Origin: Vermamoeba vermiformis
Lineage: Eukaryota
Assembly (NCBI GenBank): GCA_045837725.1
Contig: JBEWZL010000202.1
Location: forward strand, 434,001-498,000
DNA length: 64,000 nucleotides
Direction: 5' to 3'
Below are positions 1,722-58,391 of the stretch, one piece after another (the stretch's first letter is position 1; each line of letters starts with the position of its first letter). The notes under the pieces are model-generated. The model saw nothing but the letters and a program-made list of their open reading frames with translations. It was not told the origin of the DNA and did not search any database. A program made the position numbers and the translations under genes.

Positions 1722-1755
<34 letters not shown>

Positions 1756-4700: not shown

Positions 4701-7023
4701 ACTACTTTCTCAACTTGCTCATTGCTTATACTTCTATACTAAGGTACCTATGTGGTGCGGATTATCTAGGGGCATCGCTTATTATCGATTTAGAGAATGG
4801 CAAGACAACTCTGTATATTCCTAAGCCTGACGAGCATCACGGAATATGGCACAACGCGATTCAATCCAATGACACTTTAAAGGCTAAATACGACGTAGAT
4901 GACGTGTAAGAAGTACAATATTACTATAATAGAGAAGGGTAGTATACCTAATGATTCTATAGTAAGTACACTAGCGATCTCACAGAAGAGTTGCGAAAGT
5001 TACGAGCCAATCACGTGCGGATCTACTTGCTGAACGAGAAAGTTAAACTGCCGAACAACAACGCGAACAAGTACGAGCTAGACACTACGACAGTCGAGCA
5101 GTATGTGTATCTCAACGTCCATTCATTTTTTAATTGGTTTGAAGAGCACTCAAAGACGCCCGTACAGTGAAGTCTGACAAGGAGTTAGCGATGATGCAGT
5201 ACGCAGCTGATGTGAGCAGTGAGGCCCATATTACATTGATGAAGCAATGCCGACCAGGGCTCTACGAGTATCAACTCGAGAGTGTCTTCAATGGCTTGAC
5301 TTCGTTCTGGGGGTATGTTAATTCAGGCCACTTCCAGCACACCAAAATTTTTGACACGTGTCAAACATCTTACAGATTGCGCCACTCAGCTTATCCAGCG
5401 ATTGTCGGCTCAGGTCTTAATAGTGCTATTCTTCATTACTCAGCGAACAATAGACTCATTGGCGAGAACGATCTTGTGCTCGTGGATGCAGGTGGCGAGT
5501 TCCACTGTTACGCTAGCGATATTACACGTAAGTGTGCATTATCCTATAATATCAATTTCTTCGGTAGTGTTGGCGGGATTGAGCACCTTTTGACTTTTTG
5601 AGGACGTTGGTTCGGATTACGAGGGCACGTCAACAACGGCCGTTTAGCTCAGTTGGTTAGAGCATCGTGCTAATAACGCGAGGGTCCCAGGTTCGATCCC
5701 TGGAATGGCCACTCTTTTTTGTCCTTTCTCGCTACTTCCCTCCGTTCCCACGTTTTCCGCTCCTGGGACCTGAACTCGCTTAGCTGTCACACGTTATGAT
5801 GACGTTGCTTGCCTATACGAGGTATGACACACGAAACACTTGGACCGTGGCCAGTGACAAGTAGTGACCCGAACACGAAATCGCTTTCGGTCTCGGTCAA
5901 TATTAATATGGTTTGTCTTTTTGACGACCTCGTATGACTGGCGCCTTAAATTTCAACTACGGCGCCATAGCTTAGTGGTAGAGCCTCGGTCTCATGAGTC
6001 GATTGTCCAAGTTCGATTCTTGGTGACGCCTATTCTTTTTTTGGTTGTGCCGTCACGTCCCGGCTTGTGGAAGTAGTGACCCGAACAGGAAATCACTATC
6101 GGTCTCGGGCACGACCACACTAACAAGAATGCACCGCTTCCCGTCCGATCAGCGAAGTTAAGCTTGTTCAGGCCTTCTTAGTACTGGGGTAGGAGACTAC
6201 CTGGGAATCGGAGGTGTTGTGCTCTTTTCTTTTTTTGCTTTTGTTCCTGTCCGTAATCACTTGGTTAATGTCCCTTCCTTGTGTGTTGTTCCAGCCTGTT
6301 TTTTTTGTTCCGAAGCCACAAAAAAAATTGATGGCTGGTTGATTGCCACATGTACTTTTACGGAGTTATAATTAACGCCAATTTGTTTAGGAACTTACCC
6401 AGCCAACGGCAAGTTCTCAGCTGATCAAAAACTGATCTACTCGATCGTGCTGGATGCGCAAAAGAAGGCCATTGCAGCGCTGCGACCAGGAGTTAGTTGG
6501 TCCAGTGTCGTCGACACAGCTCTTCATACACTACTTACTGGATTATTAGAACACGGGTTTGTGCAAGGCAAGATGGAAGATCTGATTGAGGATCGCGTGG
6601 CCTACGTGTTCATGCCACACGGTCTGGGACACTTGGCAGGTCTAGACGTGCACGACGCGAACATATTCCCCGACATATTAACTGCTGGCCAAGTGGTCAC
6701 GATTGAACCCGGCCTTTACTTCAACGAGACAGCAATCAATGAAGGACTTAACAAGGCTTCCACTAGCAAGTACTTGGTCAAGCCGAAGATTGACGCGTTC
6801 ATGTAAGTCTCACTTTGACACGTGTCAAATTCCATGTTTTATCCTCACTCGAATGCAATTGCAAATCTATCATCGTCGGAGGCTTCCACTAAACTCACTT
6901 ATAATTAGGTCCTTTGGTGGAGTGCGTATTGAAGATATTTTAGTGGTCACTGAAACCGGAAGCAGATCCCTCTCGAATGTGCCGAAAGAAATCGATGAGA
7001 TTGAAGCTCTCATGGCCAAATAA
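401..7023 (+). CDS. PEPD: Xaa-Pro dipeptidase/aminopeptidase P (prolidase, M24B), multi-exon; exon 2 interrupted by a ~4 kb insert
   Basis: Spliced translation gives MYQKQFNPHAVVDAQNGIPPE/IWKENRQRF...RNADVEHYFRQDSSFQYLCG (AMP_N-like). Catalytic motifs follow: LHY, DAGGE..YASDITRTYPANGKF, FMPHGLGHLAGLDVHD, TIEPGLYF, GGVRIEDILV. Confidence 0.9.
517..4547. other. Low-complexity, probably error-rich or chimeric insert (C/A-rich ~540-3170, AT-rich coding-like ~3190-3790, C-depleted ~3790-4530)
   Basis: Extreme strand-asymmetric composition, long C homopolymers and no coherent ORF or splice signals. The flanks rejoin in frame as prolidase IPPE|IWKENRQRF. Confidence 0.75.
3240..3720 (+). pseudogene. 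Frameshifted phage/virus tail-fibre-like coding fragment
   Basis: Reading across frameshifts gives GDTGTYSYPT..SVDAKGRLTAASSNT and LSNTGVTAGNYSTANI.VDAK. Both resemble the GVTAGxYxxxTVDAKGR tail-fibre repeat. Confidence 0.5.
5350..5365. repeat. Dispersed palindrome TTTGACACGTGTCAAA (12-bp core at 5352, 6816, 34542, 39644, 46660, 49670, 56957)
   Basis: Exact TGACACGTGTCA read at seven positions. Confidence 0.9.
5638..5711 (+). tRNA. tRNA-Ile(AAT), intronic
   Basis: Cloverleaf GGCCGTT...AATGGCCA with A box TAGCTCAGTTGG, anticodon loop CT-AAT-AA and T loop TTCGATC. A T-run terminator follows. Confidence 0.95.
5859..6108 (+). repeat. Direct repeat of a 38-nt element (5859-5896 and 6071-6108; 35/38 identical)
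   Basis: AAGTAGTGACCCGAACACGAAATCGCTTTCGGTCTCGG vs AAGTAGTGACCCGAACAGGAAATCACTATCGGTCTCGG. Confidence 0.9.
5961..6031 (+). tRNA. Atypical tRNA-Met(CAT)-like gene, intronic
   Basis: Cloverleaf with A and B boxes, anticodon loop CT-CAT-GA and T arm CCAAG/TTCGATT/CTTGG, followed by a T7 terminator. It has a C5:A68 mismatch and two G-U pairs in the anticodon stem. Confidence 0.7.
6107..6225 (+). rRNA. 5S rRNA, intronic
   Basis: About 119 nt with terminal helix GGGCAC/GTGCTC. It has the conserved eukaryotic 5S motifs GCACCG..TCCCGTCCGATC, GAAGTTAAGC, TTAGTACT and CTGGGAAT, then poly-T. Confidence 0.95.
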
Positions 7024-7250
7024 AGTTTTTTCTGATGTTAACTGCACATGAATGAGAGTATCGTAACTATAAATTAACTGCGGCCAATAAATTGTGGGCA
7101 CAGACGTACACAACGGCTCGAGCGCCTGTCCCCAAGAATTTCATTCATTGTTTGGCCAAAGTTCCAAAACCAAAAAGTAATCGAAGCTTTGGATCTAATA
7201 AATAATTGTTTATAGTTCTATTATGTACAAATATTTGGTAATATAAAACA

Positions 7251-10200
7251 TTAATGTGACTCCACGGGCATGTCATCGAGCTCGGCAATGACGTCATCAC
7301 CGACACCACCAGTGTTCGTGCCGTCTTGCAGAACAGTGCCAGAAGACTTGCCAGACTTGGTGCGCGATCGCATTGACGAGACCCAAGCTTTCTTCTTATC
7401 GGCACTTTGAGCGAACAACGAGGTCTTCTTGAACAAGAAGATGAAGATGATGGCAGGAGCAATCTCAACAATGTACAAGAAGATGAGCACACCGACAAAA
7501 CTGCGGTCAGAGCCCAATGAGCCGTGCAACAAGTTACCAGCTTGTGCTAGCAAACAAATAGCACAAACAGCCGAGACAATGACGAGCTGTAAAAGAATTG
7601 TTAGGTTCATGTTTGACAGGTGTCAAAAGTGTCAAAATACGTACTCTGATCAAGGCCTTGTTACGCTCAGAGTTACGGGTCCTTCCGGCCATCTTAGCGG
7701 TCTGGTGCATCATCTCAACGATACGACCTCCGTACACGCCAAATGTAATTGCCAAGCCCAAACAAATCAACGCGAAGATAACTTTGTACGCAATGGCTAC
7801 CTTCTCAGCGTCGGTCAGTTCTTGAGTGGCAGGCGTTGAGCAGTTGACGACACGATTGTTCGACAAGTTGTAGAACAGCGCGGCCAACACGATGAAAGCA
7901 GCGCCCAAGAACGCGTTCAAAGAAATGACGACAGGGCGCAACTTGTTGATACCCGTGATACGACCAGTGGTCATGGTGAAGTGATAGATTTCAGCCCTAG
8001 TCGCAGTTAGTCACCTTATAGGCATTATTATAATAGCTAGTCGTACCATCGAATAACAATCAGAGAATAGATCGTCAAATAGAGCAAGGCTGGAAGTTCT
8101 GAGAAGACTACATCCGCTTGACGAGCAGTTTCGAGCACACCGTTGCTCAAGAAGAACAAGTACAACAGACGAACTATATGATATTAGTATAAAGATAGGG
8201 TTACTGATGTGAGCACTTACGGATCAACATAAAGAACAAGATCGTGAGCGCGGATGTGGCCATGTTCCAGAATCCCTTGGCAGAGTCAGCTTGCATAATA
8301 TGGATGATAAAGTGGAAGGCAGTAAAGCCGAGCACGAAGACGTAAATGCCGACACCAATGTAGATCAACGCCAAGTTACCCTGGCTGATGGTCTCGATGA
8401 ACTTGATGTTCTCGTAGTTCTCGATCAAGACAATAGGGAACAAAATACCCTCAGTAGATTGCGACAAATCGAAGCAGTACTCGCTGTTGGGAGTTAATAA
8501 AGTAACCAAGAGGATCTGATCGAACTTACGTTGTGGTGAGTGGCAGTTTCAAGTCGAGCGGGGTAAGGAACGAGTAAGACTCATCAGGATAAGCAAAGTC
8601 TAAATAAGCGGCTGTGCCTAGCGTAGTGTTGGGCTGGAAAAAAGGTTGGTACAAGAACGAGCAAAAAGCAAAAAAGAAACTGGCCTAACTCGGATTCGAA
8701 CCGAGGACCTCCCGCTTACTAGGCGGGCGCAATAACCAACTATGCTATTAGGCCGTTGTTATCCGACTTTTTGGAAAAACGACATCCAGACGACATCGGT
8801 GCAACTTGTTACATACCGTGGGAAGAGGAATGCATGCGTACAATCCAGAGAGTGCGGTTACTGTCAGTTCCAACTTGACACCATCGCTAATCATCTCTCC
8901 AACAGCCGCAACGTTCTTGTTCTTGACATATCTAAATTGATCGCTGAGGCCTGATTGAGGCAATGACGCGGAGATGGAGCTGATAGTGATCTTTTTACGG
9001 GAGTTGAACTGTCTTCGAGGTAGCGAGTAGACCTTCAAATTGATGCAATCCACGTCGGAGTCGGTATTGAAATCAGACTGGCAATATGTTAGCAAAAGGT
9101 GCTCAGCGCGTCACAGAATTAACACTTACGTGAACCTCGATTCTCGTCTTGGTCGCTTGAGAGGTCGTGTTCTCAACGATAGATCTGCAACATTGAACAA
9201 CGGCATCGGTAATAACGCTATACATGTGTCAGAATGACGAACGTATCACAACGATAATGGAACGTACCTGATGTTGGCAACGCATGACTGCGACAGGTCC
9301 AACGTCTTGTCAGTACCGCAGTCACAAGCAATGTTCTCCAAGGCGTCTTGAGATCGACCGTAACGGCACAACACTTCACGAGCCATAATGTTAGCGAAAC
9401 GCTTCGCAATAGCAGCTCTCCAGAAGGTTCTGAACTTTGTGTTGTCAATTGCTGAGCCAAGCGAGTTTGCTTGGGCAAATGCTCTTGGTCGCCATTGTAG
9501 ATCAAACCAAGCGTTGCTGGTCCATTCAGCTCCGGTCCACGAGTAGTACGGCAAAATTTCACCGCCGCACTTGGTACACTCGCTCTCGTTCTTCGCCGAG
9601 TATCCGGGAGGAGGTCTGTTCGGCGCTGCGACAGATTGAGCTGTGGATGGATCGACGCAAGCGTAGCCTTTGTCGAGACATTCTGTTCTTGAAGCTGCTT
9701 TGTTGACCCATTGACCCCTGTTGAGATAGTTAGATTGTTGCCGAGACTAAGCGAGGCTATTTGACGACTTACCCTTGGGTGGAACAATCAGTGATTGTTA
9801 CGTTCGGAAGATAACAACCAACAGGACTCCATTCAGTTTTATCGGGACAGATATTACTGTCAGGCAGTGGTGTTACACAACCTTCAAAATCATCGCAAGT
9901 GCCTAGTGTGCATTAAGTTAACTATTCTATTTGTTTGGTTTGACGAGACTTACCAGCCGTGTCACATCCGGGTTCAGTTTCGCAAATTACGCTGTCGCAA
10001 CCATTGCAATAAGACGTGCTCAAACAAGTGGCCTCGTCGGTGATGTTCTCGTTAGGAATGCAAAGACCAGTGCATGCAAGCTCAGTTTCATATCGTGGTT
10101 CCATCCAATGAGTACCAGGCCTGAGCAAACAATAATTCAGTCTCGATCCCTTCTATTACATCATTATTACGTACCACCAACTTGTGCCGTTACGTAATTT

Positions 10201-14430: not shown

Positions 14431-17400
14431 TTAATCTCCCCATTCATCGCTATCAACACCTTGCTTGTCTTGACCGGGCATAATCACCTCACCGGCATTG
14501 GCGTCCTTCCACTCTTGCATTCTCTCGTGGTACTTGTCAATAACCTATACATAGGATTAGTAAGCTGGTTGTCATATAATCCATTGATAATGCGTACCTT
14601 AGCAGCCAATTTCTTGGGGTCGTTCATGTCCTCTTCTTCGGGATTGAAACGACGAACTTTACGAACAAGTTTAGGAGCCTCAGACAACTTCTTCATGTCA
14701 GAAGGTTGCAAGCTGATCACCTTGGGCTCTTTGTTTTGACCTCCGAGCCATGCTGACGAGTCCAAGACAGCTTCACCGCTGTTTGTGGGAGGGAAGACGT
14801 CGTCTTGGAAGAACTCTTTCTATATTAGGAAAACACGTGTCAGATCAGGATCGATATCGGTTATAGAAGGTCTCGAGCCTAGTCCATTGTCAATAAGAAT
14901 AACGTACTCTAGTTCTAGGAACGAAGAAACTGATGACTTCAACAGTGTCCTTTGTGAGCTTGAATGTGCGCATAAACTCGACGTTCTTAACATCGCAAAT
15001 AGTCTTAGGCAACACTGACACTGCAACTTGAGGAATGTTGCTCTTGTAGTCAATGAGGCCGTGGACATAAGGCTCAGCGTTTTGTAACTCGTAGAAACGC
15101 AAAGTGCTGTCACCCTAAGTATTACGAACATTAGTCTAAGCTCTTATAATAACCTTAGCGAGTCATACCTTGCCCCAGAATAAGAGAACACCGGTGTCTT
15201 GATCGTAGACAGGAGTAGGGAAACCAGATCCGCTGTCGACCAAGAAGCTAGTCAACTTCTTGCCGCTGTTTCGGATATCAATCAACTCAATGCGACGCTC
15301 GCTCATCTTGTTGAAACCAGTGCAGATGAGTTGATCTTGCTTGCCCTGCCAAGTCACAGCCGATCCTTGAGCACCACCAACATCATCAAACTCTTGAACA
15401 CATTTCTCTTGACGAGGGTCCCAGAGACGGATCTTCTTGTCCTTAGAGTCAGTAACCATCAAACTGCCGTTGTAGTTCCAGCTAACTGAAGTAGTGGTAT
15501 CAGTGAAGCCCTAATCAATATTAATTAGCAACTTTAAATAATTTTTTTAGTTTTCAACGTACGCGAAGAGTGAGTACGTCAGTGTTCTTGTTCAAGTCCC
15601 AAACTTTAGCAGTCAAATCACCACTAGTAGAAACGAGAATGTTGTTGACGAGAGGATGGAAGTTGACGGTGACAATCTTGTGGTTGTGGTTGAGAAGATC
15701 TGCGTCAGGGACGGTCACGTTGCTCTTGAGACCGACAAGGCCGTCAGCAGGGACCTTCCATAAACGAACACGACCGTTCTCACCACCAGTGGCGAGCAAT
15801 TTGTTGTCGAAAGGACTGAATTCAAAGTCGATTACAGTTGAACCAGTTTCAATAACAGGCACGTTCAAGTCAGTCAATTTTCCAGTTTTCTATTCGCCAC
15901 AATTAGTTACTGTCATATCGGGTGTTGAGTGAGCCTTACCTTGGTTGAGAAAACACCGACACGACCAGCAACACCTTCCCAAGGCACAGCGAAGAAGTCA
16001 GGGTTAGCGCTCAATGATCGCGTGGCCATAGCGTTGTTAGTGACACGCAAGTTGGTGTAGAAAAGGTTCTGATTGACAGGCTTGCCAAAGATGTTCTTGT
16101 ACTTGGACGAACGAGTGATTTGAATGTCTTTGGGGATATAGAACTCGCTGTCAGGATCGTCTTCCTCTAACTCTTCACCGGGCATGTGCTCCACGGTAAT
16201 AACGTTGTTGCTCTCAATCTTGACCTCTTGTTTGATTGTGAATGCAGCACCGTCAGATGTCTTGGCTTGAATGTATTTGTATTCAATCTTTTGACCACCA
16301 GACACAAATTGGCGAGGAGCAGGCGAGTTGTTACCCGAACCAGTACCAGCGCCAGTGCTAGTAGTGTGGGAGACAGACGGTGAGTTGTTGTTGGAAGTGC
16401 TAGCAGGAGTGCTAACATTGGACGAACTCGATTCGTTGGCAATAGTAACACCTTCAGGAGCCAAACTGACCAACTTGGGAACCTTATTTTCACCGGCGAA
16501 CCACTCGTCCTGAGTCTATACCAACACCGTTAATAACGTCCTAAGAGGTCAAATATTGTTTGGAACTTACAAGAGCGGGCTCTCCTCCGCGAGTCTCAGG
16601 GAAGAGATCTGCGTGGAAGTCACTGTAAGTCTAAACAAGACCTGTTAGCATGTGTATTATGGTAATATTTGCCGAGTATAATACCTTGCGAGGTACAGTG
16701 AATCTAACAGGAATGATAGTATTGGCGGTGACCTTGAGCAATCTATCGACTTCAGCGGACATAACATCGAGACCAGCTTTAGGTACCAAGCAAATACCAC
16801 GGTGTTGATCCGGCATTACGAATGGTGTGAGTTCAGAGAAGTAAGGAGCATCGCTCTTCATTTCATACAGCTTGACGGTGCTATCGCCCTATAATAATAA
16901 ATTGTAAATAACCGGTTTAAAGCGAAGGATTAAATAGGCCAATAATTATATATTGCACTTACTCTGCCAGTAACAAATAAGACTTCGGCGTCAGTATCAT
17001 AATTAGCTGTTAATACGGAGGTTCCGCAATCAACGCTTTGAGATTTTAATTTAGTCAAGCCGTTCTTAGTATCCCAAAGAGCAAACTCTCGTTCGCGAAG
17101 CTTGTTCGATCCTTCATAATAAATAAAATGCTTGTCAGATATTTTGATCTCGCCATCCGAATATCGGTTCGAAATTTACCAGTTGTCAAGAATCGTCCTG
17201 ATTGACCCAACCAAACAACTTGAGAGCCCTTAGTGCCATCATGACCGTCCACTTCCTAAAATAAATTTGCGTTAGGCAATTTTACGAAGATTTTTTCTAA
17301 TTTAATCGAAATTAATTTACGCTAATTGAATTTAACTCTAAAAATTATAACACGATGGTAATTCAATTAAACAATTACCTGCACGAAAGATTTTGCTCTA

Positions 17401-34197: not shown

Positions 34198-34237
34198 AGC
34201 AAGCAAATAAATGACGTAACAAGTCGCTCGTTCATTT

Positions 34238-35962
34238 TTAATACAACCTGTCAGTAGTCCTCTTTCCGGGCCCTAAGATCAAATGCGGCAATTTCGATGT
34301 GATTTCATATCTGGCGTTGTTACGAGACCAAGGCAGTACGTTCCAATCAGCCCTCTCGCTCACATTGCTTGTCACCGCAATTGACTGAAGACGTGCCAAA
34401 AGTGTCACGTGCAGTGTGTTGCATGTTCGTGTTCGGCAGATCAAGTGCGTCAAGTGCTGCAAGTTCGTCAAGCCAACAAGATCTTCATCCGCGGTGAAAC
34501 AATAATCGAGTGACCGAAGCAGAGTCAATTTTGACACTTGATGACACGTGTCAGTTTGACAGCATGACAGCCGCGTCAGTTTGGTCAAGTTCTGGAACAC
34601 ATCGTCGGTCACGTAAGGCACTTCTAATCGCTCCAAGTTGATAAGGGACCCAAGTCCAATGATGTCTTTGTTCGATGTCATCGGCACGATTAATTCTCGT
34701 AGCTCAGTCAAGGCAGCCAGATTCATGCTTCCGCCATTCTTGGAACTGAACTGAAGATCTATCTCAGTCAAGCCTGGCACCAGATCGAAGTTGAGTGTGA
34801 CATCCGTAGCTCTTCTGATCGTCAACTTTTTGAGCTTGGATAATTCTATTGTAGGCACAACATCAAACGATCGAACTGTCTCTAAATAGAGCTCTTGTAA
34901 GTTGTTCAGTCCAAATATGTAATGTTGAGCTGCATTCGTGGTCAAAGCCTTCACTTTCGTCAAGGTGTTTGGTAGTCGACTGAGATCAAAGCCATGGTGA
35001 CTGTTGTTCTCCCACACCAATTCTTCGAGATGGGGCGGTAAGTCGTGCAAGTAGGGTCCATAATGAGTGCCTAGTATTGTGAGGGCCTTCAAGGACGTCA
35101 ATCGTTTGTGGTCATATGTGAGGCTCTTAAAAACTGAATCTTGCAATGTCAATCGCGTCAATCGTGTGCTTTTGAGGCTGAAGTCCATCAAGACATGAAG
35201 TTCTTCTAAATTAGGCAAGTCCAAGTTCAACGGATCTCGCGGTTCAGATCCGCCAAACGGACCGTCGTACACAGCGTAGTGTGAGTCGATGGCTCTAATG
35301 TTTAATTTCTTCAGCCTCGAGAACTGATTGAACGAGATTTGCTTCGTGTACGCGCTGTCAATATTTTTGACAGTCAAAGATGTCAAAGTGTCAGGATTGA
35401 GCATTGACACTCCGTTCATCGGTCCGATGTAGACTTCTATTTTTGGTAATAAGACTTGACGGGGGTAGGTTATCACGGAGTCTACATCCAAATAGGTCAA
35501 GTGCGGAATTACTTGAATAATGGCTGCGGGAAAAGGAAGGATCAACTTTTGTAGGTTTGTAAAAGGCACCAGATCCAGCGTTGTAGTCATGCCAGATCTC
35601 TTATATAGCCATCTTGTTTCGATACTTGTCAAATTGGAGAGGTTGTTGATGAAATTGTGGAGTTGTTTTTCGGATGCTTGGTCAGATTTGTAAACTGTCA
35701 GGCTGAACTGAGAATATTTTTTGAAATGTTCGATCATTGCTGGTATTTGATACGGCGATAATATTTTGATGATAAAATGATCAACTTTAATTTGATTGAA
35801 CCAATCTTTGCAAACTGATCGAGCAAACAACCGATCTTCATCATTTAAAAAGTCGTGGATCGACTTAACTAGCTCAACGGGCAATAATTCGAATATATTC
35901 AGAATATTCTAAATTAAATAATTAATTTAATTCAACTTCTGAAGGTTTCTTACGGCTTCCAT
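34238..35962 (-). CDS. F-box + leucine-rich repeat protein
   Basis: LPVELVKSIHDFL...ARSVCKDW F-box followed by LxxLxxL repeats; one short 5' intron. Confidence 0.82.
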
Positions 35963-38062: not shown

Positions 38063-40006
38063 ATGGATCAAGAAATGTCTTCCGTATTAAACCAAGGCCA
38101 TGCATGTGATTATTGTCAAAAAAGGAGGATCCGCTGCGATAAACAAAAGCCGCAGTGCATAGAATGCATTACACGGAACATTCAATGTAATTATGGTGTG
38201 CGCTTAAAAAGAGGACCGAAGACTAAGAAGCAAGAAATTACGGTCAGCTCAGAAACCCGAATCCGAAAAAAATCAAAATCCAATTCCCGAGTTCAAGCGC
38301 TTCTATTCGAATTGGAATTTAACAAGAAAATGGTAGATATATGGAAAAGTGCTTTTCTTAATGAGAATGACAATTTCAGGAGCGCTAAGCAAAAATGTCG
38401 AGAGTTCGAACCTGCCACGGAGGAATTTATCAGATCGCCCAACGCAATTCAGACAATAATGACAGAATTTAATGAGACGTTTAGATTAATATTTAGTATG
38501 CCAACTTACGCGGCTAATATGGATTTTGCAACGAAGATCTGGCAAGCGATGATAGAGATTTCCGCTGTAGATTTACTTTCAATGCTCAGTACATTTGATT
38601 CGAACCTCCTATTATCAATGCTAGAATATTATATCGCATTCATGCTTTGTAAGTTATTTTGAAATGAAATTGAATCGAGATCTTTATTGAGATCTAATCC
38701 CATTTCATTTCTTGCAGGTCTCAAGCTATCAAAATATAACGACATCGCAGAGTACATATCTATTTTCGTCAATTATATATTCGACACGATAATATACTCC
38801 AGAGAAGATTGCCCCGTGTCACTGGAGCAAGCAGAGCAAATACTTCACAGTTTGGCCTTCGTTGGTCATTATTATAAAATGACGAACAATCGCCATGCAC
38901 TAACGAACAACATATTTATATCCTACGAGATTTACAACAACGGCAAGAAAAAATGGGCTATGCCAAAAGATCTTGAAGCTAGGTAAGAAAATTTCCCAAA
39001 TGGCTCACTATTGCTATAGTAAGACAAAGTTACATATGCGGTGTTTTTTGTTGTGATATAACCTGTTCTGGCAGTCGGATTATGCTGACTTCGTTTGCTC
39101 GAATTCAGGGCGTTGTGTCGAATGATTCTAGCAGCTAAATCAGAAGAAGATCGAAGAGCGTATATTGACTCATTCTACGCGCTTGATCCCGCAGAGGTAA
39201 CGTCAGCAATTTGTTCGGACTGGATCTGTCTGACAAAAATTTTCTCTTCTAGTTGCATGCACTAACGCTTTTCATGGTCAATATATCTGTATCAATAGAG
39301 TCTATTCAAAATAAGAAAACGAATCTCGTGTAAGTTGTTACCGACGTCGATTTCGATCACGTCACTTGATCTAATGGATCCATCCACTAGGGAGGCGAAT
39401 GTGGCGATTGAGAAGGCATCGTATTTTGCTCAAGCATTTGTATCTCAATATGACAGTCGCATGCAAAGTCCAGCCGAGCGCTACTATGATTCTTGGATTG
39501 GCGTTGTTCACTCTGAGGTTGCTTTCAGATCCGGCAATGTTGAGCTTTCACGCAGCAAATTTGGACGATTACTAGAATCATATGCTGTAATGTCATCTCC
39601 TTGCAGAGATTGCTGATGTCTAACATTGAGGCAAGTTTTTGATTGACACGTGTCAAGTGTCATCTTTTGGACTCGTACAGTACGACCGGCTTTGGCTAAC
39701 AGCAACTTTTCTTAGTACTTTGAGCACTCAATGGGAGACCATGCCTTGCTAATCAAAGAGTTCTTGCCGCTATTAACTAATCAGGGCGTCACGATGACAC
39801 AAACATTGCCGCATTCGCTGCTCCTGGCAACAACTTTCCAACACATGAGCGATAGCAAATCGATCAACTACAGTAGCAATAATGTCTACTCGCCTTCTAA
39901 TACCTATGGACCAATGAGTAGTTCGAGTGAGGAAATAAGCACGGTGGCAGAGTTTTACGATGTTAGTGCAGATCCGTTTTTTGAATTTGACTCTATCACC
40001 TTGTAA
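38063..40006 (+). CDS. Zn(II)2Cys6 binuclear-cluster transcription factor
   Basis: CDYCQKRRIRCDKQKPQCIECITRNIQC followed by KRGPK. There is an apparent 1-nt frameshift near 39550. Confidence 0.85.
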
Positions 40007-43048: not shown

Positions 43049-45305
43049 ATGATAAGTGGATCGAGTTTTTTATTCGGATCTTTTGTCATGGGCTCTTCAT
43101 TGTCCTTCAGAACGGACTTTTCAGTCGACAAATTCACCAGTAGCTCTATGTTGGATCAAATACAATTTTTGAAGAATTTATTGGCAAGCTCAGAAGAGGC
43201 AGATGTCGTGATCACTTATTTAAAGCTGTTCAACCAGCTTTACAAGGACCGTAAAGAAGTTATGATTAGCAATAGCATGTTTAACGACAGAGTATTAATT
43301 GAACGGCTGATGAAGAAGATTGGATTCGTTTCGGGCGATAATTTAGATGCCGATCAATCTCGTAATCGCCTGCAGTTCCAAATTGCAAGCGAAGCCACTC
43401 ACGCACTTGGATTAATAGCACGAGAAGGTAATTAATTAATTTAGACCAACGCTGGATTATTTCTTGGCTAATCCAGAATAATTTTGCGATTTTGCAATCA
43501 CCGAGTAATCCACTAAAAATCATCGCGCCAAAATTATTAAATAACAAATATAATGGATTATGATATGAATCGATAACATTGCAATTAATTAATTAACGCT
43601 GCTGTTTCAGATGTCAATTTTTTTCGATGTACCCATTTTAATTATCGTGTCAGTATTAATACTGTCATATTATTACAGATAGTGCTCGTGAACATATTAT
43701 TAACGTCGGAGGCGTTCAATTAATCATCAGAAACATTCAGCAACACGGAGCCGTCGAACAGTTGACTGAATACAGCTTATTTACGCTTGGAAACCTTAGT
43801 ATTCATGGTAATATATTAGTTTTGTCATTAGTGATTATAATAAGCGTACTGAATCTAGAATATTTGATCTTTTTTACGCATCCGTGTTTTCCGTCAAGCT
43901 TTAATTTTGATTTCAAAATGGGGATTTATCACTAATATTCGTGGAATAATATAGAACAAGGCAAGAGACTTATGGTTGAACAAAATGGAATCAAATTGGT
44001 GACAGATGTGATGCAGAATAGTTTGTCCTCAGCGCAGGTCCTCGCACGCGCTTGTTTTGTTCTAGGAAATCTTGCTTTTCACGGTAAATACTCTAATATA
44101 GTATATTTTATTATAAAATAGCTGACACGTGAGTATTGTACTGATGACTTTTAACGTCCGCAGAGAACTGCAAGAGGGTGATTCAGCAGCACGGCGGCAT
44201 TGAACGTACTGCTCTAGCGATGAGTGCGCACCCTGACCATGCACCACTGGCCCTAGAGGGATGCTTTTTATTGGGCAACATGTCCGTCCTCAAAGGTGAG
44301 TCTCGTGCACATGTCGCGCGATATCGAAGTAAGACGCGTGTCGCTAATTTTTCTTTGCAGAAAGTCGTGAGTTGATCGTGGCCTCTAAAGGTGTTGGACT
44401 GATTCTCAACGCCATTAAATGCACGCGCGCACTGTCTGAGTTGCTTGAGCTCGCTTGCACGGCCTTGTACAACTTGACACTCAGCGGTACGTATTTGACA
44501 CTTTGACATTTTGACACTTGAAGCAGCTACTGTTCAATAGTCTTTCAATATAGCATTGCTATTGTTTGTACTAGCGTACTAATGTCGTTATTGCAGATGA
44601 GGGCAACAAACAAGTGTGCGAGAGTGACGCGGTTGTCGTGCTAGTTGACATGATCAAAACGAGCAACAAAGACGATAACTTCCTAATTGAAGCGATGGGC
44701 GTTATCAACCGTGCCTATCTCTACTCAGAACAGAACAAATTGACGGTCATTACTTCGGGCTTGATCAGCACCGTCATCACGATCATGGGATCTAGCCGCA
44801 ATCCAAACTTGAAGTTGGCCTGCTTCAACCTCCTGAACTTTTTGAGCAATCCTGAGAGCGTCATATACGAGACTAGACCTATGGGTATGTATTGATACTC
44901 TTCTTCTTGCGAGCCACATCCAACTCGCTTTCAATTTCAGCATTAATTTATGGAAATCGACCTTAAAGAGATTCATATATACTAATGGTATTTGCAGGCG
45001 TTTCTAGTCTATTGGAGCTGTCAGCAAGATCAGTGCTGAACAGATCCGAAGGCGCGTTTCCGGATGTGGCTCAGTTAAGCTTGCCCAGCGAGTTGCTCGA
45101 GTACTTGACGCAAAGACCTCGCCAATGTGATCAATGTGGCCGTAATTACTTTGATTACTACCATCAGCTTGTTACGTTCAAGAAGTACGATGGATTTAAC
45201 CAAAAGTTGCCAGCCATGAACAAATTGTGTTCAGAGAATTGCGTTCATGAAATGAAACAACGATCGTATGCCGAAGTAGGGCCCAACAGAGGCACGTTGA
45301 AGTAG
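43049..45305 (+). CDS. Armadillo-repeat protein with C-terminal Cys cluster
   Basis: Repeated GGV/GGI...ACF.LGNL ARM units. The C-terminus reads VSSLLELSARSV...CDQC...CSENC. Confidence 0.8.
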
Positions 45306-45548: not shown

Positions 45549-47588
45549 ATGCTAAGTCGAGGATTTCAAGCACTTAGACGAGTTTGTACGCGGGTTGGAT
45601 CTAACCGCAGCTTGGCGAAGGTAATCAAAAACCTACAAATATTATTAATATTTAAATTGTGGTTAGAAAGTTGCAATATTGTTGTTATAATTGCAAAATA
45701 TCTAACTGACTAATTGTTAAAAATTACAGAAAATCAAATTAAATGCTCCAATTCGCAGATCTTATCTCAAAGGTAAATATACAACTCATACTTACTATTA
45801 TTGATATATTTACAGTGATATCGCCTTTAAAACAATCTAGCAAGCTAGTGTTCGGATCTGCTGTTGCATTAGCCATTGTACCATTACAACTGAATGAGAC
45901 GGTATGAATTTCATTTAATTCCAATAATATTAACAATAATGTTCATAGAATACTAGTGAAGAGGCTGATAAACGAGAGAAAGTGCAGCGAACAGAAGATC
46001 TGGTGCGGCTGATCAAGCTCGTCAAAGGAGTGCCTGGTGTCGTGGTAGTGGTGATGAAAGATGGAAAAGTGCAATTTGAACGAGGATTTGGATATGCAGG
46101 TACGGCCCTATTGTAGCTTGTTGACTCAATATTCTGACACTTTCGGATCCAGACGTAGAAAACGGCCTTAAAATGAAGTCAAATCAGTTACTAAGAATAG
46201 CAAGCATATCAAAGGTACATTAAATTTATAACATTAAATCATAGTCTCAATAACTCTTTGTTAGGCAATGACTACCGCTGCGCTAGGTCAAGCGATTGAA
46301 CAGGTAACGATACCTTATTCCCATAAAAGGAAATATTTACTAATATAGTAATACTGATTCTAGGGTTTGATTGACATCGATAAGCCAATCAGCGAATATC
46401 TACCCGATTATCCGCAACAAAAAGACTCCATCACACCACGCATGCTCGCGTCACATTTGAGTGGCACACGACATTACAAGGGCAGAGAGTTCTTGTCGAA
46501 TAGTGAATATGAGACTATTCAAGACGCACTCGAAGTGTTTAAGTAAGTTCTAATCACCATTTACATTCACTTTTCAAATGAAAAAATTGCTTGACACGTA
46601 CAAACACTACCACGATTTCTTGCAATTTTTTCACGTGATTCGTGTTCAAAGGCGTAGTATGACACGTGTCATTACAAACTATTTTGTCAATTTGCTTTGT
46701 GCAGTATCGCGCAATTGTGTCTTTTGAATGACGATTGATGTGTGCAGGAATGATCCGCTCAGCAGTCAGCCAGGCGAGAAATATTTGTACACGAGTCACG
46801 GCTTCACGTTGTTGAGTGCGATCATTGAACGAGTGACCAAACAAGCCTTTGTGGACTATATGAAGCAGAATGTGTTCGATAAAATGGGCCTGGAGGACAC
46901 AACTATAGATGGCAATACTGATTTAATGCTGAACAGATCCAAGTATTATTACAGATCCGGATGTAGCTCCGTCGATCGCGCTAACGAAGAAGAGCGAAAG
47001 AAGAAAGCAGAGAATACTACTAATACTAATAGTGATAATAATAGCGATGGTAAGATAAAGCCGAAGAAAATTCCCGTGGCCAAATGTGCGTTGCAAAATT
47101 CACCTGAAGTCAACAACAGCATGAAATGGGCAGGCGGAGGATTCGTTTCGACAGCGAGGCAAGCATATTAAGCAATATTATAGTGCCTCTAATGACCTAT
47201 GATTATCGATTAGGGATGTTGCCTTATTTGGTCACAATCTCGTGCTCGGAGATTTCTTAAAGTCCAGTACAAAAGAATTGCTGTTCGCACCGCAACAATT
47301 AAAGGACGGAAAATTCACCGAATATGGCCTGGGCTGGCAAGTACAGACGAAAAGAATTCACGGCGTCGAAGAGAAGATTATTGGGCACGCTGGTGGGGCT
47401 GTTGGCGCGAGGTACGTGAACACGATACTTTTCGACATTAGGGCACGTTTATATTGACTTTGTCTAGCTCACATCTGCTTGTCATTCCGTCGAGTCGAGT
47501 AGTAGTTGCCATAATAGGAAATTTAGAAGAAGTCGGATTTTATCAAACGGCGCTGAAGATCGCGAAAGTGTGGCATCAAAAGAAGTAA
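45549..47588 (+). CDS. LACTB: Mitochondrial serine beta-lactamase-like protein
   Basis: Arg-rich targeting peptide, RIASISK (SxxK), HLSGTRHY, YLYTSHG, KWAGGGFVST and GHAGGAVG. Confidence 0.85.
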
Positions 47589-47719: not shown

Positions 47720-48465
47720 CTAAACCGCTTGTTGTGGTACGAGACTGGTGGTTGCATCGACGGCGCCTGTGTGCGTTGGAGTGTAGCGAGGCTCTTCAGG
47801 ACCCTATTTTATAATCGTAAGTAAGCTGCGTGTATGTCAATTTTGCGATCCACCCGAGAATAGGTACCTTCTTCTTGCGGCTGTTAGAGCAGCAAGTGAA
47901 GCTGAGACAAATGAACGGCAATAAGATCAAGAACAAAGCAATGCCAATTAAGCCGAATAAGAAGCCAAATATGAATGCTGCGGCGAAGATCTAGAAACGA
48001 AATGGAACCTGTCAGATCTGTTTTGACACGTAGGTTACTTTTAGCTTACTAATGAGCGTTTCCAAGCAGCCATAGTTTCTGTTGCCCTAGTGTTGGTGTA
48101 CGGAGAGTAGCCATCGATGAATAGATCGTATTTGTAAAAAAAGAATCGATATTCAACTTTGATCTGATTAAAAATAAAAGTTATTAATTATATATGAATA
48201 TATATATTACTACACATCCTTACTATTAAAACGTGCACTCCAATGGTAATAACTGAAGCGGCGTATGCCTTCTGAGTCAAAATTTCGTTTCCGTTGACTT
48301 TTACCGTGATATTCTGGGGTATAAATTAGTATATAAATAATTGCGCTATTTATCGTTGTTTATTTTCGATAAAATAAAATGCCGTACTCGTAATCTACCG
48401 TGCTCTATTTCGACGGTATACTTTTGACCGTCCAGATACACTGACCAACCTTTCCAAAGAGGCAT
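47720..48465 (-). CDS. Small hypothetical membrane protein
   Basis: Exons with GT/AG boundaries splice in frame (MPLWKGWSVYLDGQKY...). It has a long hydrophobic segment followed by CFTCCS. Confidence 0.65.
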
Positions 48466-48694: not shown

Positions 48695-50747
48695 TCACAG
48701 GTACTCGTTCTCCTCCATAATACTCTTTCGGTTAGCCATAAACTGGTCTAATTGAGATTTCTTAAAAGAAAAGCCGAGAATATTTCGCTTATCATACAAT
48801 TCGTCGTTACTATTACTTTTAGTCACATCCAGGGCTTGCACTTGTTCGCTAATATCATCCGCTTCTGAAATATCATTTTCTATAATACTCAGCTTTTCAA
48901 TGCTCTTTTGGAGTTCATTCTTGTTAGCTTGCATCTGTAACGGATCCGATCAGTAAGACGTTTATGCGCGAGACGGCGCCAAAGTCACTTTTGCCGTTCA
49001 TGAATGAAGTGTCAACGAGGAACTTACAGAAAAACTTCGCTGTGAAAATTTAGTCTTCCGTCTCGAAGCGGCAGGACTGTACAATCGCTTCGTATTCGGC
49101 GTGTCATTCTCTTTATCGTCTTGCGGCACACCTTCAAAATATGATGTGTCATATTCACTGTCCAACTTTGGCACGAACAGTGGCTTCATGCCGGGCAAAT
49201 TGGACCAATCTACCGTGCTGAAAAACGAATGTGTCTTAATTTGGTCAATGTTATCAACGCCTATCCGGCTAGCAGATGGACTTAGGAACCTAATATATGC
49301 GAATAAAGTTAGCTAGACTGTTAAAAATGAATGGCAAGTCATACTTTTGGATCAGATCCGACGCTTCTGGACTAAAGTTTGGAGTAATGTATTCTTCGAT
49401 TATTTTTGGTAAGTATTCGCTATGGCTCTTAATATTATCGAAAACTTCGTCTGGTGAATTCGCGTAGAACGGTGTGAAGCCCGTTAACATTTCAAAAAAT
49501 ATACACCCGATGGACCACCAATCCACCTCTTTGCCGTAGCCTTGAGCATTGTTGTCGAATGAGCACAGTACCTCAGGGCTCATGTAGTCGGGACTGCCTA
49601 CAATAGAATGTGCCTAAATGTTCGAAAGATGTCATTAGCAAAGTGTCAATATGTCGGCAATCTAAAGGTTGACACGTGTCAAATATGTCAGTCGAAAGTA
49701 CCTTTTGCCGTTTAGACAGTTTCTTCAAAGGCGAATCAAACTCTATATTGATATTGTTAGAATAAATATACGATGAGTTCGAAGCTTTTTACCTTTTTCG
49801 AGCAAATTCGTCCTGGATTCGGAGCGAGGTACATCAGCTTTTGTATTTACAAGTCCTTGATGTTGATGTACAACTCCTTCTTTTGACAATCCAAAATCAG
49901 CTAGTTTTAGATGTCCTTTTTGGTCAATAAGAAAATTGTCTGGCTTGAGATCCCTGCAAACACACGGTGAGTCTTTTAATGGATCAGATTCGGATCTTAT
50001 GTACCTGTGAATATAACCGAGTTGATGTAGCGAATCTACTGCTACTATCATATCAGCTAAATATACTCGTGCTTCATTTTCGGTTAGTGTTTGAAGATCG
50101 TCTAGTAACCTTCGCAGATCTCCGCCAGGGCAGTATTCCTAAGAGCAGATAAATATCTACGTAAAGTCTATGTATTAAATATAGTGCTTACCATTGCTAA
50201 ATAAAGATTCTCCGTATCTTGAAATGAATAAATAAGCTGCACCATGTAATTTGTTAAACCTCTGGCTAAAACGTCTCGTTCGGTCTTAATCGTTCGAAGC
50301 TTCAATGAAATTGCATTTGTTAATTATTATTCGTAATATTTATAGGAATTAATAACGGCGTACCTTATTCTTTTGCCAGATCAAAGACTTTTTCATGATT
50401 TTTAGGGCCAGTATCTCTGTCGTATCTTCTTTCCGACAAAGATAGACCTCCACAAATAAATTAGTACAGGTATAGTATAAATATACGATATCTTACATCG
50501 CCAAATGCCCCTTTTCCAATTTTTTTCAGCAAAGTAAAATCCGCTAGGCAGATCTTCGAAGCATCAGATAACTTCCGCCCTGCGCCATAAATTGTTAATA
50601 AATTCGTATATTGTAATATGTTATTCAGTGTTTGATTTATTACATACGTTTTGGAGACTGATCCACGCGTACAGATGGATCTTCAACGACCTCACTTCGG
50701 AGCCGTTTCCGGTCGTTCTTCGTGGAAATAAATATCGGGCTACTCAT
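48695..50747 (-). CDS. AGC kinase of the NDR/LATS/Dbf2 family
   Basis: [46 protein letters not shown], an activation-segment insert, [20 protein letters not shown] and [12 protein letters not shown]. Confidence 0.9.
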
Positions 50748-50899
50748 TGTTGATTCATCTATATTGATTACGTCGACAATAACAATAAAAATGGAAATCA
50801 GTTGTGATTTTCAATTCAAATTTTTCAGGCCAACTTTTGGCGCCGAAAAAATAGCCGAGGCGAGACCGTTGGGATACAAGTGATTTAATGATTAATATA

Positions 50900-56700: not shown

Positions 56701-58391
56701 CGATATTATCAGCCAATCAGCATTTGCGACCTTGGAAATGATTGCTGAGACTTGTGGGTAAGTCACGTCAAATCCATTCTTTCGGATCGGATCTCAGATC
56801 TGTCTAGGTACGCCTCGGTGAAAGAGTTGTTACAAAAGAACATTGACTACGTAGTCAATGCAATCAGCAATCAGCTCCGATACGCAGAAATGAACGTGAG
56901 CTCGTTGAAAGTGTTGTTTGGAATCCTCAATTTCTCAGGTACGCTGTAGTTTTCAGTGACACGTGTCAAATCTGAGTGTCAGTATTAATTACATGTCTTT
57001 TGCAGGTCAAGAGATCGTGTTGATGCTCGATGATATTCTCGATGATCTGTTCAAAGGCCTCGTGTCCAGCAAAGCAGTTGAGTTCAGAAAACCACTGCTG
57101 AAGATTCTGCACGGCATTGTGGACATTATTTGCAAAGAGATGATGAATTACTCGAAAGTTGAAAAGACTAACAAAGTCAGTTTGAAAAGTTTTGTACTGG
57201 AAAAGATTCGAGAACGAAGGGAGTACTTGGCTGAGCGACAAAAGACTGCCGAGAATTTTGAAGAGATTAAAGAGTACTTTTCAGAATATCACAAGAAAAA
57301 ACAAGATGAAGAGACGTCACGTGAGGACCAGCTCGAAGAGATCAATGACGGCATGAACAAAGACGACGATGAAGGTACGTAACATTCTCGAGAGCGTTGA
57401 CCAAGTTTGACCAACATTTTTATTGCCGCAGAATCGTTACAACTCGTGAGAGCAGGTCAACAAGTGCTTCTCGACGCAGACAAGATGCGCATCAAGCGAC
57501 AGTTCCAGTTCGTGACCAACATCTTGCTGACAGCCAGCAACTACTTGGCCACAAAGTCCGCTGAGACACGCGTACTCGTGCTTGACATTATGGAGCGCGG
57601 TGTGAAGGCACTTGCGTATGACTCGAGCAACTTGCTGCCAACAGTGCACAAGCTGTGGGAACCAATGAAACCGAGGTAAGTTCAGCGCTCAGTCCTACTT
57701 TCCAAATATGGTAAAGACGTATCATAACCACGTGACTGTTCGTAGGTTCGTAGATGAAGATCCACGTGTGCTCGCCAAGTCAATGAACGTGATGGAAGTG
57801 TTCAGTCAGATCTCACAAGACTTCTTGACACGCAAGTTCTCAGAGGACTTGTGGCCATTCATCAAACGCAAGATTCAACAGTTTGACACGAGCACGCATG
57901 CAGGCAAGAAGTACATTGCGACGCTGAACGAAGCGAGTCAATACACGAACACGTACAGCTTGCACAACACGCTGCAGTACAGCACGCCGATCAAAATGCA
58001 ACACGCCATGCTCGTGTGCTTGACAGCCGCAGCCAAGTTCGTGCCAGTATTTGACAAGGACCTGCACGACATTGTGAACACGTGTCGCTTCTTGCTGAGT
58101 GAGGCACAGCCAAAAGAAGTGCGTGTCAAAGCCATCGAACTGTACGCACAGTTGCGATCACGTGACGAGAACTACGTGTGGTGGACTTTGTCAAGGCTCG
58201 CAAACAACAACTTGCACGAACCACCTGCGAGCAACAACAGCGCTAATAACAGCTGTGGCTTGGAGACGATCAACTTGACGTATTTGCAAAGTGAATCGAG
58301 CGTTGACCCGTTGATGCAACAAGTGCCAATTGGACTGACGCAGAACCTGTACGAGCGATCATACGAGCAAGTGTTCAGTAAATCAATGTAA
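53789..58391 (+). CDS. TTI1: TELO2-interacting protein 1 (TTT complex), HEAT repeats
   Basis: FRALKPLCV, ADYLLFPL, ASFLPGIV, GDFKQG, LYPILEKLG, NIDYVVN and LLPTVHKLW. Confidence 0.88.

Follow-up and report, generated by a model that had tools for sequence, protein, structure and literature searches.

A palindrome of 12 bases, TGACACGTGTCA, recurs in the 64-kb stretch of DNA analyzed here (hereafter the window), in genes that are functionally unrelated: those of an aminopeptidase P, an F-box/LRR protein, a Zn2Cys6 factor, a protein of the beta-lactamase family, a protein kinase, and TTI1. What kind of element is it, and why does it lie where it does? We found seven exact copies, starting at 5352, 6816, 34542, 39644, 46660, 49670, and 56957, i.e., roughly one per 9 kb. 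It is the highest-count 12-mer of the window, and the word and its sub-words top the lists of 8-, 10-, 12-, and 14-mers. Shuffling gave an expectation of 0.01 copies, and seven copies were reached in none of 100 dinucleotide shuffles. A Markov model of order 5 leads to 0.17 expected sites for the seven found. When both strands are counted, the 14 occurrences compare with 0.007-0.34 expected under Markov orders 0-5. Hence, a background of high order, which the initial annotation of this DNA had named as the explanation to be tried against its claim of over-representation, fails to account for the frequency. The palindrome is not universal, since about 26 kb (8-34 kb, roughly ten genes) lack a full copy.

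The architecture of the sites is strict. A search allowing at most one mismatch added a single site, TGACAGGTGTCA at 7614, resulting in a total of 8 sites for 0.13 expected, with a consensus of about TTTGACACGTGTCAAA. All eight inverted pairs of half-sites at spacings of 0 to 5 have the form TGACA-N2-TGTCA, and the other spacings have none. The central dinucleotide is CG in seven sites and GG in the one at 7614, which suggests that the centre of the palindrome is read by whatever binds it. We identified 9 clusters of half-sites in the window (2.7 expected), 7 of them at motif sites, and additional half-sites beside six of the eight sites, the exceptions being 5352 and 6816. The frequent extra half-sites reported earlier are thus real, as is the triple tandem of TTGACA with a period of 8 bases, whose intron is confirmed by RNA (Table 1). 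Since such a direct repeat cannot form a hairpin, it points to the recognition of a linear unit. The half-site TTGACAC shows no strand bias in introns (12 sense vs 8 antisense). Among the variants listed in the initial annotation, 7614 is a true one-mismatch copy, while 14833, 44123, and 48021 turned out to be pieces made of a half-site plus the core.

Table 1. Palindromes, partial sites, and half-site clusters in the window, with their genic context.
Feature	Positions	Strand of gene	Context	Remarks
Exact palindrome	5352..5363	+	63-nt intron 5313-5375, aminopeptidase P gene (about 4497-7023)	
Exact palindrome	6816..6827	+	Last intron 6803-6908, same aminopeptidase P gene	Convergent junction 315 nt away
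One-mismatch site TGACAGGTGTCA	7614..7625	-	Last intron; donor 7644, acceptor 7587 or 7547	Third TGTCA at 4 nt
Partial site ACACGTGTCA	14833..14842	-	Intron 14820-14907, coronin-7 gene	
Five half-sites including exact palindrome 34542-34553	34534..34567	-	Coding, F-box/LRR gene, open frame 34238-35908	Palindrome 304 nt from the stop of its own gene and 345 nt past that of the converging kelch gene
Second coding cluster, five TGACA/TGTCA half-sites	35358..35407	-	Same F-box/LRR gene	
Exact palindrome and adjoining TGTCA	39644..39655	+	Putative last intron 39587-39715, Zn2Cys6 gene	Convergent junction at 330 nt
Half-site plus core TGACACGT	44123..44130	+	Intron of RNA-confirmed gene 42960-45305	
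Three tandem TTGACA, 8-base period	44495..44517	+	5' end of intron 44486-44595	RNA joint 44485>44596 in three runs
Exact palindrome	46660..46671	+	Intron 46543-46747, beta-lactamase-family gene	TGACACGT also at 46592
Partial site TGTCA-N9-TGACACGT (TGACACGT at 48024)	48010..48031	-	Intron 47991-48049	Joint 47991>48056 in 15 RNA reads; convergent junction 399 nt off
Exact palindrome	49670..49681	-	Intron splitting protein kinase domain	Three more half-sites within 49632-49688
Exact palindrome and TGTCA	56957..56968	+	67-nt intron 56939-57005, TTI1 gene	
Exonic partial site ACACGTGTC	58078..58086	+	TTI1 gene	TTI1/TPR convergent junction at 337 nt; identical in L002

To place the sites in genes, we used our own annotation of the window, which comprises 54% exon, 22% intron, and 24% intergenic DNA. 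Six exact copies fall in introns, one in an exon, and none in intergenic DNA; for the 8-mer halves the corresponding numbers are 16, 7, and 0. Short GT-AG introns contain the six intronic copies and the 7614 variant, and four of the seven introns are backed by RNA joints, by homology in Pfam or PDB, or by the alignment of an orthologue, in agreement with the earlier count of six intronic copies and one coding copy. The genes labelled A and B are a single aminopeptidase P gene (about 4497-7023), identified by Pfam matches to AMP_N and Peptidase_M24, and intron 5313-5375 corresponds to a gap of 21 residues in the comparison with aminopeptidase P chains of known structure. A Pfam profile is continuous over the gap left by intron 46543-46747 (71-126 and 127-226), where a read pair of a relative connects 46524 with 46762 and has 32 diverged letters in the middle; the RNA libraries are unstranded and sparse, come from a relative that is 90-95% alike, and gave no listed transcript ends at the sites. 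The Pkinase profile continues (152|155) on the exons flanking the 49670 intron, and the alignment of the TTI1 orthologue supports intron 56939-57005. Introns 6803-6908 (signals GTAAGT...TTAG) and 39587-39715, and the intron of the 7614 variant, were drawn from reading-frame continuity and splice signals only. The 3' 1.6 kb of the F-box/LRR gene form one open frame, modelled without an intron, in which the cluster around 34542 translates as CQTDTCHQVSK within an LRR-like stretch.

The copies had been assigned to 3' introns and to the last 1.7 kb or so before the stop codon of the host gene. The distance holds for six of the seven copies in our models and fails for 49670, which is 1874 nt from the stop provided that the kinase gene extends to 47796. 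The bias toward the last intron is weak: this intron holds three of the seven intronic sites (corrected models, P about 0.02-0.05), and the positions of the sites relative to gene length span 0.28-0.92.

One of the sites could be followed in a metagenomic relative, L002 (about 73% DNA identity). In the orthologous TTI1 intron of L002 the 12-mer is unchanged (L002 752-763), at a different offset, and the remainder of intron 56939-57005 cannot be aligned between the two. This evidence of conservation consists of one orthologous intron, and the chance of an independent gain in an intron of roughly 100 nt is about 4% by our own arithmetic, given 0.43 per kb of intron in the window. For the exonic partial site that is also identical in L002, ordinary exon conservation could be enough of an explanation.

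The sites are placed where closely packed transcription units end or adjoin: in our gene models, all eight are at most 2.05 kb from a convergent junction, four of them at less than 500 nt and four at 1-2 kb. The convergent genes have stop codons about 45-230 nt apart, or reading frames that overlap. The mean distance to the nearest of the six convergent junctions is 963 nt, whereas the median of the pool is about 2.5 kb. In permutations, P was 0.0003-0.0005 for the mean and 0.0002-0.004 for the median, values obtained with our own rough gene models on the same 64 kb that prompted the idea. The proposal that the copies are mostly in genes of convergent pairs is sustained with the same restrictions, for six or seven of the seven copies (permutation P about 0.0003-0.004). 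No site accompanies the junction 25485|26182. As introns are almost the only non-coding DNA near the convergent junctions of a compact genome, this may be why the sites are so restricted to introns.

We think that TGACACGTGTCA is probably a selected protein-binding DNA site. The idea of a gene-body DNA element is supported as far as a selected element acting at the level of DNA is concerned (the orthologous 12-mer, the coding copy, the 12 vs 8 half-sites on the two strands, and the lack of intergenic copies), while functions in chromatin boundaries or termination stay conjectural and a role in replication found no support here. Our preferred explanation, which we hold tentatively and somewhat short of an even chance, is that a dimeric protein acts on this site where convergent units meet. 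What this window shows is that the sites are enriched, follow a strict architecture, are placed in introns or coding sequence, are retained in one orthologue, and are close to convergent junctions; from this we infer the binding, the kind of binder, and the function. The protein would bind the double-stranded site in a sequence-specific manner as a symmetric dimer, each subunit reading one TGACAC half-site, and single half-sites nearby would allow cooperative binding. The sites would be kept inside transcribed gene bodies, close to the converging gene ends, and written into coding sequence at spots without introns. The bound protein may then mark or separate the converging transcription units, either by obstructing, in whichever orientation, polymerases that run on from the gene opposite, or by anchoring complexes of the cohesin type. 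That the function is specifically one at convergent junctions is the more doubtful part. A stronger version, which we consider rather unlikely, is a punctuation system for a genome lacking CTCF, in which the palindrome specifies the borders of convergent units and a homodimer serves as a two-way barrier to polymerases entering from the opposite gene and/or as a cohesin-type anchor. The sites would then occupy the introns nearest to the junction, or coding sequence where introns are absent, and would amount to sequence-specified domain borders.

The first alternative to this dimer site at convergent units is that a common transcription factor, either of the bZIP or bHLH type (ACGT core) or a TALE-homeodomain dimer, binds here, with the site working as an intragenic enhancer or silencer of a regulon; introns would merely be where a compact genome has non-coding DNA. 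We regard this as unlikely, even though the sequence matches known factor sites, is palindromic with clustered half-sites, is conserved in one orthologue, and is carried by only some genes, as in a regulon. The initial annotation compared the sequence with G-box and TALE sites, and passages of three papers bear this out: a peach promoter motif is written tGaCACGTGtc and the bZIP motifs given include the 10-mer GACACGTGTC (in a section of PMC8133646), GACACGTGTC is likened to the G-box/ABRE (in a section of PMC4417316), and the SELEX consensus of MEIS3 is TGACAGGTGTCA, the very sequence of the 7614 variant (in a section of PMC5449588). All seven copies contain GACACGTGTC, and the ACGT/CACGTG core is common to both. 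However, the G-box and ABRE are promoter elements of stress-regulated genes of plants, whereas the copies in our gene models lie in introns near convergent ends and none of the seven is intergenic, contrary to the promoter location expected of a G-box. The window sites also have two additional fixed bases per side, and the organism, with its coronin-7 and Zn2Cys6 genes, is not a plant. The TALE dimer site TGACAG(G/C)TGTCA (MEIS, PKNOX, TGIF) shares the 12-bp layout, with inverted TGACA halves 2 bp apart, and isolated and tandem TGACA half-sites are present here too. Its consensus has GC or GG at the centre, whereas seven of the eight window sites have CG and one has GG, as in the MEIS3 consensus, and the genomic placement is unlike that of developmental enhancers. 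More generally, a factor site is at odds with intergenic and promoter DNA, 24% of the window in our models, having 0/7 exact copies and 0/23 8-mer halves, with the unrelated functions of the host genes, and with the clustering near convergent junctions. A ratio of seven exact copies to one with a single mismatch is also unusually strict for a regulatory site.

An element acting in the pre-mRNA is less probable still. It could be a hairpin (6-bp stem, ACGU loop), a protein site, or a decoy branch point, TTGAC fitting the loose branch consensus yUnAy, and it would modulate splicing or mark unspliced RNA. The mostly intronic location of the sites is in line with this, as are TTGAC-type elements at branch-point distance in several confident introns, including TTI1 intron 57375-57431, where they are kept in both species. 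Predicted hairpins reach -4.6 to -8.2 kcal/mol, vs shuffle means of -1.1 to -3.9; they are nevertheless weak, no pairing is possible between the tandem direct repeats, and the sequence is invariant instead of co-varying. A reader of single strands would have no use for a perfect reverse-complement palindrome of 12-16 nt, nor would one expect it to leave sense and antisense half-sites equally frequent, and one copy is retained in the mature mRNA as coding sequence. As for a spliceosomal branch point, only 5352, where 21 nt separate the A of the motif from the 3' splice site, and 7614 (27 nt, with the nearer candidate acceptor) are at a suitable distance of about 10-40 nt, and the intron of the latter also has a separate CTAAC/ACTAA-type site. 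In the other five of the seven introns the motif is at least 46 nt (46-105 nt) away, and four of these five have a separate site of the CTAAC/ACTAA type nearer the 3' end; with one copy coding, we rejected this role.

Very improbable is a functionless by-product, i.e., the relic of a miniature transposon or introner, or a biased insertion or repair that creates the palindrome: many exact copies with few near-variants, a palindrome resembling abutted inverted terminal repeats, and an intronic location like that of introner elements would fit, but none of the 28 pairs of 200-nt flanks matched at E <= 0.01 with the 12-mer masked, shared sequence ends at about 16 bases, no target-site duplications were seen in the flanks, an orthologous intron otherwise diverged past alignment still has the motif, one exact copy is coding, and intergenic DNA, which a mutational process should not avoid, has none. 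Since the flanks of the copies are unrelated, the element is not a transposon, as had been argued from the start, and the introner was discarded on the same grounds.

Returning to the dimeric site near convergent ends, known systems offer partial parallels. In budding yeast, roadblocks to RNA polymerase II by Reb1 and other general regulatory factors limit read-through, with a short specific protein site that stops the polymerase independently of RNA signals among closely packed genes (part of PMC5052057). In yeasts lacking CTCF, cohesin accumulates and domain borders form at convergent genes, together with 3'-end processing (part of bioRxiv 10.1101/2021.05.31.446489). The likeness to the latter is the association with convergent gene ends. 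To our knowledge, no DNA motif is involved there and transcription drives the positioning; a version defined by a motif would be new. Yeast roadblock sites are mainly intergenic or in promoters and have unrelated sequences, whereas those of the window are inside genes, where a roadblock, a role that we infer, would hinder the polymerase of the host gene too. The HIP1 element of cyanobacteria and a phage repeat are similar in being short exact palindromes of high copy number with unshared flanks. HIP1 occurs in coding and non-coding DNA of bacteria. In a family of tailed-phage contigs, TTTTGACACGTGTCAAAA (the same 16-18-mer) precedes nearly every gene, 4-18 nt ahead of start codons, in operons. 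This match is probably a coincidence, since neither sequence homology nor a host connects the phages with this eukaryote.

Short exact motifs that occur at about this density in gene bodies and avoid promoters are, as far as we know, rare in eukaryotes. Known ones recruit machinery working at the scale of chromosomes, such as the X-chromosome recruitment motifs of nematodes and the dosage-compensation entry sites of flies. The element described here shows selection on intron sequence beyond splice signals, and the palindrome could be a simple marker to annotate genes and lineages in metagenomes of a poorly sampled group. If it marks convergent ends, it would make testable how compact genomes with overlapping 3' ends prevent polymerase collisions and antisense read-through, and whether domain borders can be specified by sequence without CTCF.

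The palindromic 12-mer TGACACGTGTCA occurs exactly at seven positions in the whole window (5352, 6816, 34542, 39644, 46660, 49670 and 56957), against a chance expectation of 0.01, and a count of seven was never reached in 100 dinucleotide shuffles. Both strands together hold 14 occurrences, whereas Markov models of orders 0 to 5, fitted to the window's own sequence, predict 0.007-0.34. Such models leave the frequency unexplained, and the over-representation proposed in the initial annotation is upheld. The 12-mer and its sub-words are also the top repeated non-trivial 8-, 10-, 12- and 14-mers of the window, and we confirm that its abundance far exceeds chance. Permitting one mismatch adds a single site in the window, TGACAGGTGTCA at 7614. 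The 8-mers made of a half-site and a piece of the core (TGACACGT/ACGTGTCA) were found 23 times versus about 2-3 expected, TTGACAC 38 times versus 8-17 (both for orders 0-3), and CACGTG at 35 sites versus about 11-16. The positions 14833, 44123 and 48021, previously listed as variants, turned out to be half-site-plus-core fragments, none of them a near-complete copy. CACGTG is found 11 times between 54680 and 58164 in the 4.4-kb TTI1 gene, chiefly in exons and with varied flanks. Among the five exonic occurrences covered by L002, a metagenome contig orthologous to this part of the window, two are conserved, which is not above what exon identity predicts.

The architecture of the site is strict. 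Inverted TGACA...TGTCA pairs occur in the window eight times with a 2-bp spacer and never at spacings of 0, 1, 3, 4 or 5, the spacer being CG in seven pairs and GG in one. Most copies are preceded by T and followed by A, giving a consensus of approximately TTTGACACGTGTCAAA. At least one additional half-site lies within 50 nt in six of the eight sites, most often directly repeated at a distance of 2-8 nt, and clusters of at least three half-sites number nine, versus 2.7 expected under random placement. The triple tandem reported earlier is present in the sequence at 44495-44517. Predicted RNA hairpins at the motif sites are small and weak, and intronic TTGACAC has no strand bias (12 sense, 8 antisense). 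CpG is not depleted (observed/expected 0.96-1.22), for which reason a methylation-decay reading was dropped. When the 12-mer was masked and the 200-nt flanks were compared, no similarity emerged in any of the 28 pairs. An ordinary repeat or transposon family is thereby ruled out; the initial annotation, too, had judged from the unshared flanks that the element does not look like a transposon.

The window is intron-rich and gene-dense, with a GC content of about 41% beyond the first 4 kb. It encodes a fungal-type Zn2Cys6 gene as well as TTI1, TPR, coronin-7, kelch, F-box/LRR, aminopeptidase P, beta-lactamase-family and protein kinase genes, together with one 5S rRNA, three tRNA and one U2 snRNA genes. 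The best named homologues of coronin-7 are animal proteins (37-39% identity), nearer matches being without a name. Pfam profiles show that the models 'A' and 'B' form a single aminopeptidase P gene and that the beta-lactamase-family gene extends to about 47454. The aminopeptidase P intron 5528-6390 is 863 nt long, with a GTAAGT donor at 5528 and its acceptor at 6390, and divides the Peptidase_M24 profile at position 96. Since two tRNA genes and the 5S gene lie within it (table), RNA polymerase III genes are nested here in a polymerase II intron. Positions 1-3300 form a C-/A-rich low-complexity stretch (53% GC, GC skew -0.33, AT skew +0.40) with several open frames of 100-330 codons on both strands and no Pfam match; it may be a mucin-like gene or a repeat.

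Coordinates of introns holding motif sites, convergent gene ends, RNA genes and phage contigs
Feature	Position	Strand	Detail
Intron (copy 5352)	5313-5375		Falls at a 21-residue gap when aligned with solved aminopeptidase P chains
Intron (copy 46660)	46543-46747		Between Pfam beta-lactamase profile positions 126 and 127; reads of a relative skip the intron
Intron	around 49670		Between Pkinase profile positions 152 and 155
Intron (copy 56957)	56939-57005		Exon ends on both sides conserved in a relative
Intron	6803-6908		Frames and splice signals alone
Intron	39587-39715		Frames and splice signals alone
Intron	around 7614		Frames and splice signals alone
Kelch/F-box convergent pair	34197-34238		Ends 41-50 nt apart
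TTI1/TPR convergent pair	58391-58441		Ends 41-50 nt apart
Zn2Cys6 gene and neighbour	39955-40005		Reading frames overlap by ~50 nt
tRNA-Ile	5638-5712	that of the host gene	Inside aminopeptidase P intron 5528-6390
tRNA-Met	5961-6031	that of the host gene	Inside aminopeptidase P intron 5528-6390
5S rRNA gene	6107-6225	that of the host gene	Inside aminopeptidase P intron 5528-6390
U2 snRNA gene	26584-26802	-	Rfam 56 bits; between protein-coding genes
Phage contig L110	1-15389		9 copies of TTTTGACACGTGTCAAAA in 15.4 kb
Phage contig L108	1-6476		8 copies of TTTTGACACGTGTCAAAA in 6.5 kb

A site was assigned to an intron when an intron with good signals restored a long reading frame, and four of the seven introns with motif sites have independent support (table). 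At 34542 the copy is coding, in an unbroken LRR-like frame of the F-box gene; the stretch around it is translated as CQTDTCHQVSK, and four further half-sites are found within 34 nt. These assignments agree with the previous count of six intronic copies and one coding copy. Our own crude gene models, which class the window as 54% exon, 22% intron and 24% intergenic, fuse genes between 7251 and 18002 and break up TTI1. They place the exact 12-mer in introns, exons and intergenic DNA 6, 1 and 0 times, respectively (8-mer halves: 16, 7 and 0; TTGACAC: 20, 16 and 2). As introns make up 48% of the non-coding DNA in these crude models, the chance that all six non-coding copies would be intronic is about 0.012. 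One run yielded RNA contigs that are virtually the same as the window sequence; for the gene at 42960-45305 they confirm GT-AG introns 110-251 nt long, including the one with the triple tandem. The RNA runs that share the species label of the best-matching DNA data set are only 90-95% alike to the window (34000-53999), unstranded and sparse over most host genes; they confirm some introns and are uninformative on transcript ends. Over that interval, contigs from a run labelled as a different organism differ from the window at 0-5 positions per piece. Hence, organism labels do not follow sequence relationships.

Where do the sites lie within genes? With corrected gene models, the last intron holds three of the seven intronic sites (P ~0.02-0.05). 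A stronger 3' bias (P 0.003-0.017) was withdrawn because it came from models in which aminopeptidase P was split in two and the beta-lactamase-family gene ended early. The eight sites are 1671, 207, 363, 304, 361, ~794, ~1874 and 1434 nt from the stop codon of their host. The striking feature is how close they are to the points where two genes meet tail to tail. We modelled six such convergent junctions, whose stop codons either overlap or are separated by 45-700 nt, and the nearest one is 315-2051 nt from the eight sites (mean 963 nt), versus a median of ~2.5-2.8 kb for random genic or intronic positions. In a permutation test, the mean distance has P = 0.0003-0.0005 and the median P = 0.0002-0.004; the test was run on the window that prompted the idea and with junctions from our own gene models. 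A full site lies within 1.5 kb of five of the six junctions, and none is found from 8 to 34 kb, a 26-kb stretch made up mainly of same-strand gene runs. Partial 8-mer sites are not gathered near junctions (2 of 10 within 500 nt). Where convergent ends lie 41-50 nt apart or overlap (table), the 3' untranslated regions must overlap the partner gene.

A metagenome scan gave two short orthologous contigs, of which only L002 covers a motif-bearing intron; in the other, L001, the part of the locus covered bears the motif in neither genome. L002 has 72.5% nucleotide identity to window positions 56266-58169. Its TTI1 intron is about 102 nt long, versus 67 nt in the window, and the two introns are unalignable, yet the exact 12-mer is present in L002 at a different offset. 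Given the intron density in the window (0.43 copies per kb), an independent gain has a chance of about 4%. This retention is real, if single-case, evidence of selection. In the nearby intron 57375-57431, L002 has kept GTTGAC... and TTTGACCA, both TTGAC elements, and the remainder has diverged. Their spacing from the 3' splice site is that of a branch point, which suggests that TTGAC-type branch sites are in use beside CTAAC/ACTAAT.

The initial annotation likened the palindrome to G-box and TALE-homeodomain sites, and published motifs bear this out. Its 10-mer core is identical to a plant bZIP G-box/ABRE motif (PMC8133646, PMC4417316), its layout is that of a TALE-homeodomain dimer site, and the MEIS3 consensus in PMC5449588 equals the variant at 7614. 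Judged by placement and central dinucleotide, membership of either class fails or is open. We searched the full-text literature outside subscription journals for the 12-mer, the 10-mer and the GG variant, as well as for palindromic intronic motifs, convergent genes, last introns and fungi, and found no description of a comparable intronic or convergent-junction element. The 12-mer matched only two Ebola virus papers with unrelated titles, and the 10-mer matched plant G-box papers and unrelated ones. We know of no dedicated motif within genes among the solutions of yeasts at convergent genes. That convergent transcription poses problems in yeasts, and that these have solutions, is known from PMC3504299, PMC5052057 and bioRxiv 10.1101/2021.05.31.446489.

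Viral contigs scanned for TTGACACGTGTCAA gave 118 stretches, most of them single matches whose number is, by a rough estimate, near that expected by chance. One family of tailed-phage contigs has TTTTGACACGTGTCAAAA in almost all intergenic gaps, 4-18 nt upstream of the start codon, and mostly lacks a Shine-Dalgarno sequence there. Its genes include Baseplate_J, P2 GpU and tail proteins, with only 35-38% identity to known phages, as in a distant myovirus-like group. No homology between the phage contigs and the window was found, and the identity of the motifs, though striking, is probably a coincidence.

Taken together, the 12-mer fits a double-stranded DNA site for a putative symmetric dimer, under selection. 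This reading draws on the strict palindrome with its invariant centre, on additional linear half-sites, three of which form a direct repeat unable to pair, on the lack of strand bias and the unrelated flanks, and on the presence of the motif in an orthologous intron and, once, in coding sequence. If the copies were the sites of an ordinary regulon, they would be at odds with promoters that have none and with host genes that are unrelated. An element acting at the RNA level, or a branch-point decoy, accords poorly with a palindrome without strand bias, with the coding copy and with separate branch sites closer to the 3' splice site. Flanks that are not shared, and the motif's conservation in the orthologue, speak against a selfish or mutational relic.

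The evidence supports in part the initial annotation's reading of a DNA element. Beside convergent junctions there is near-zero intergenic DNA, so introns are the sole free sequence, which would account for the restriction to introns. The F-box gene has, in our model, no intron in its final 1.6 kb, and the site there sits in codons. We infer a possible role in separating converging transcription units: a putative bound protein would help to keep them apart, and it may do so as an obstacle to the polymerase or by anchoring cohesin-type complexes.
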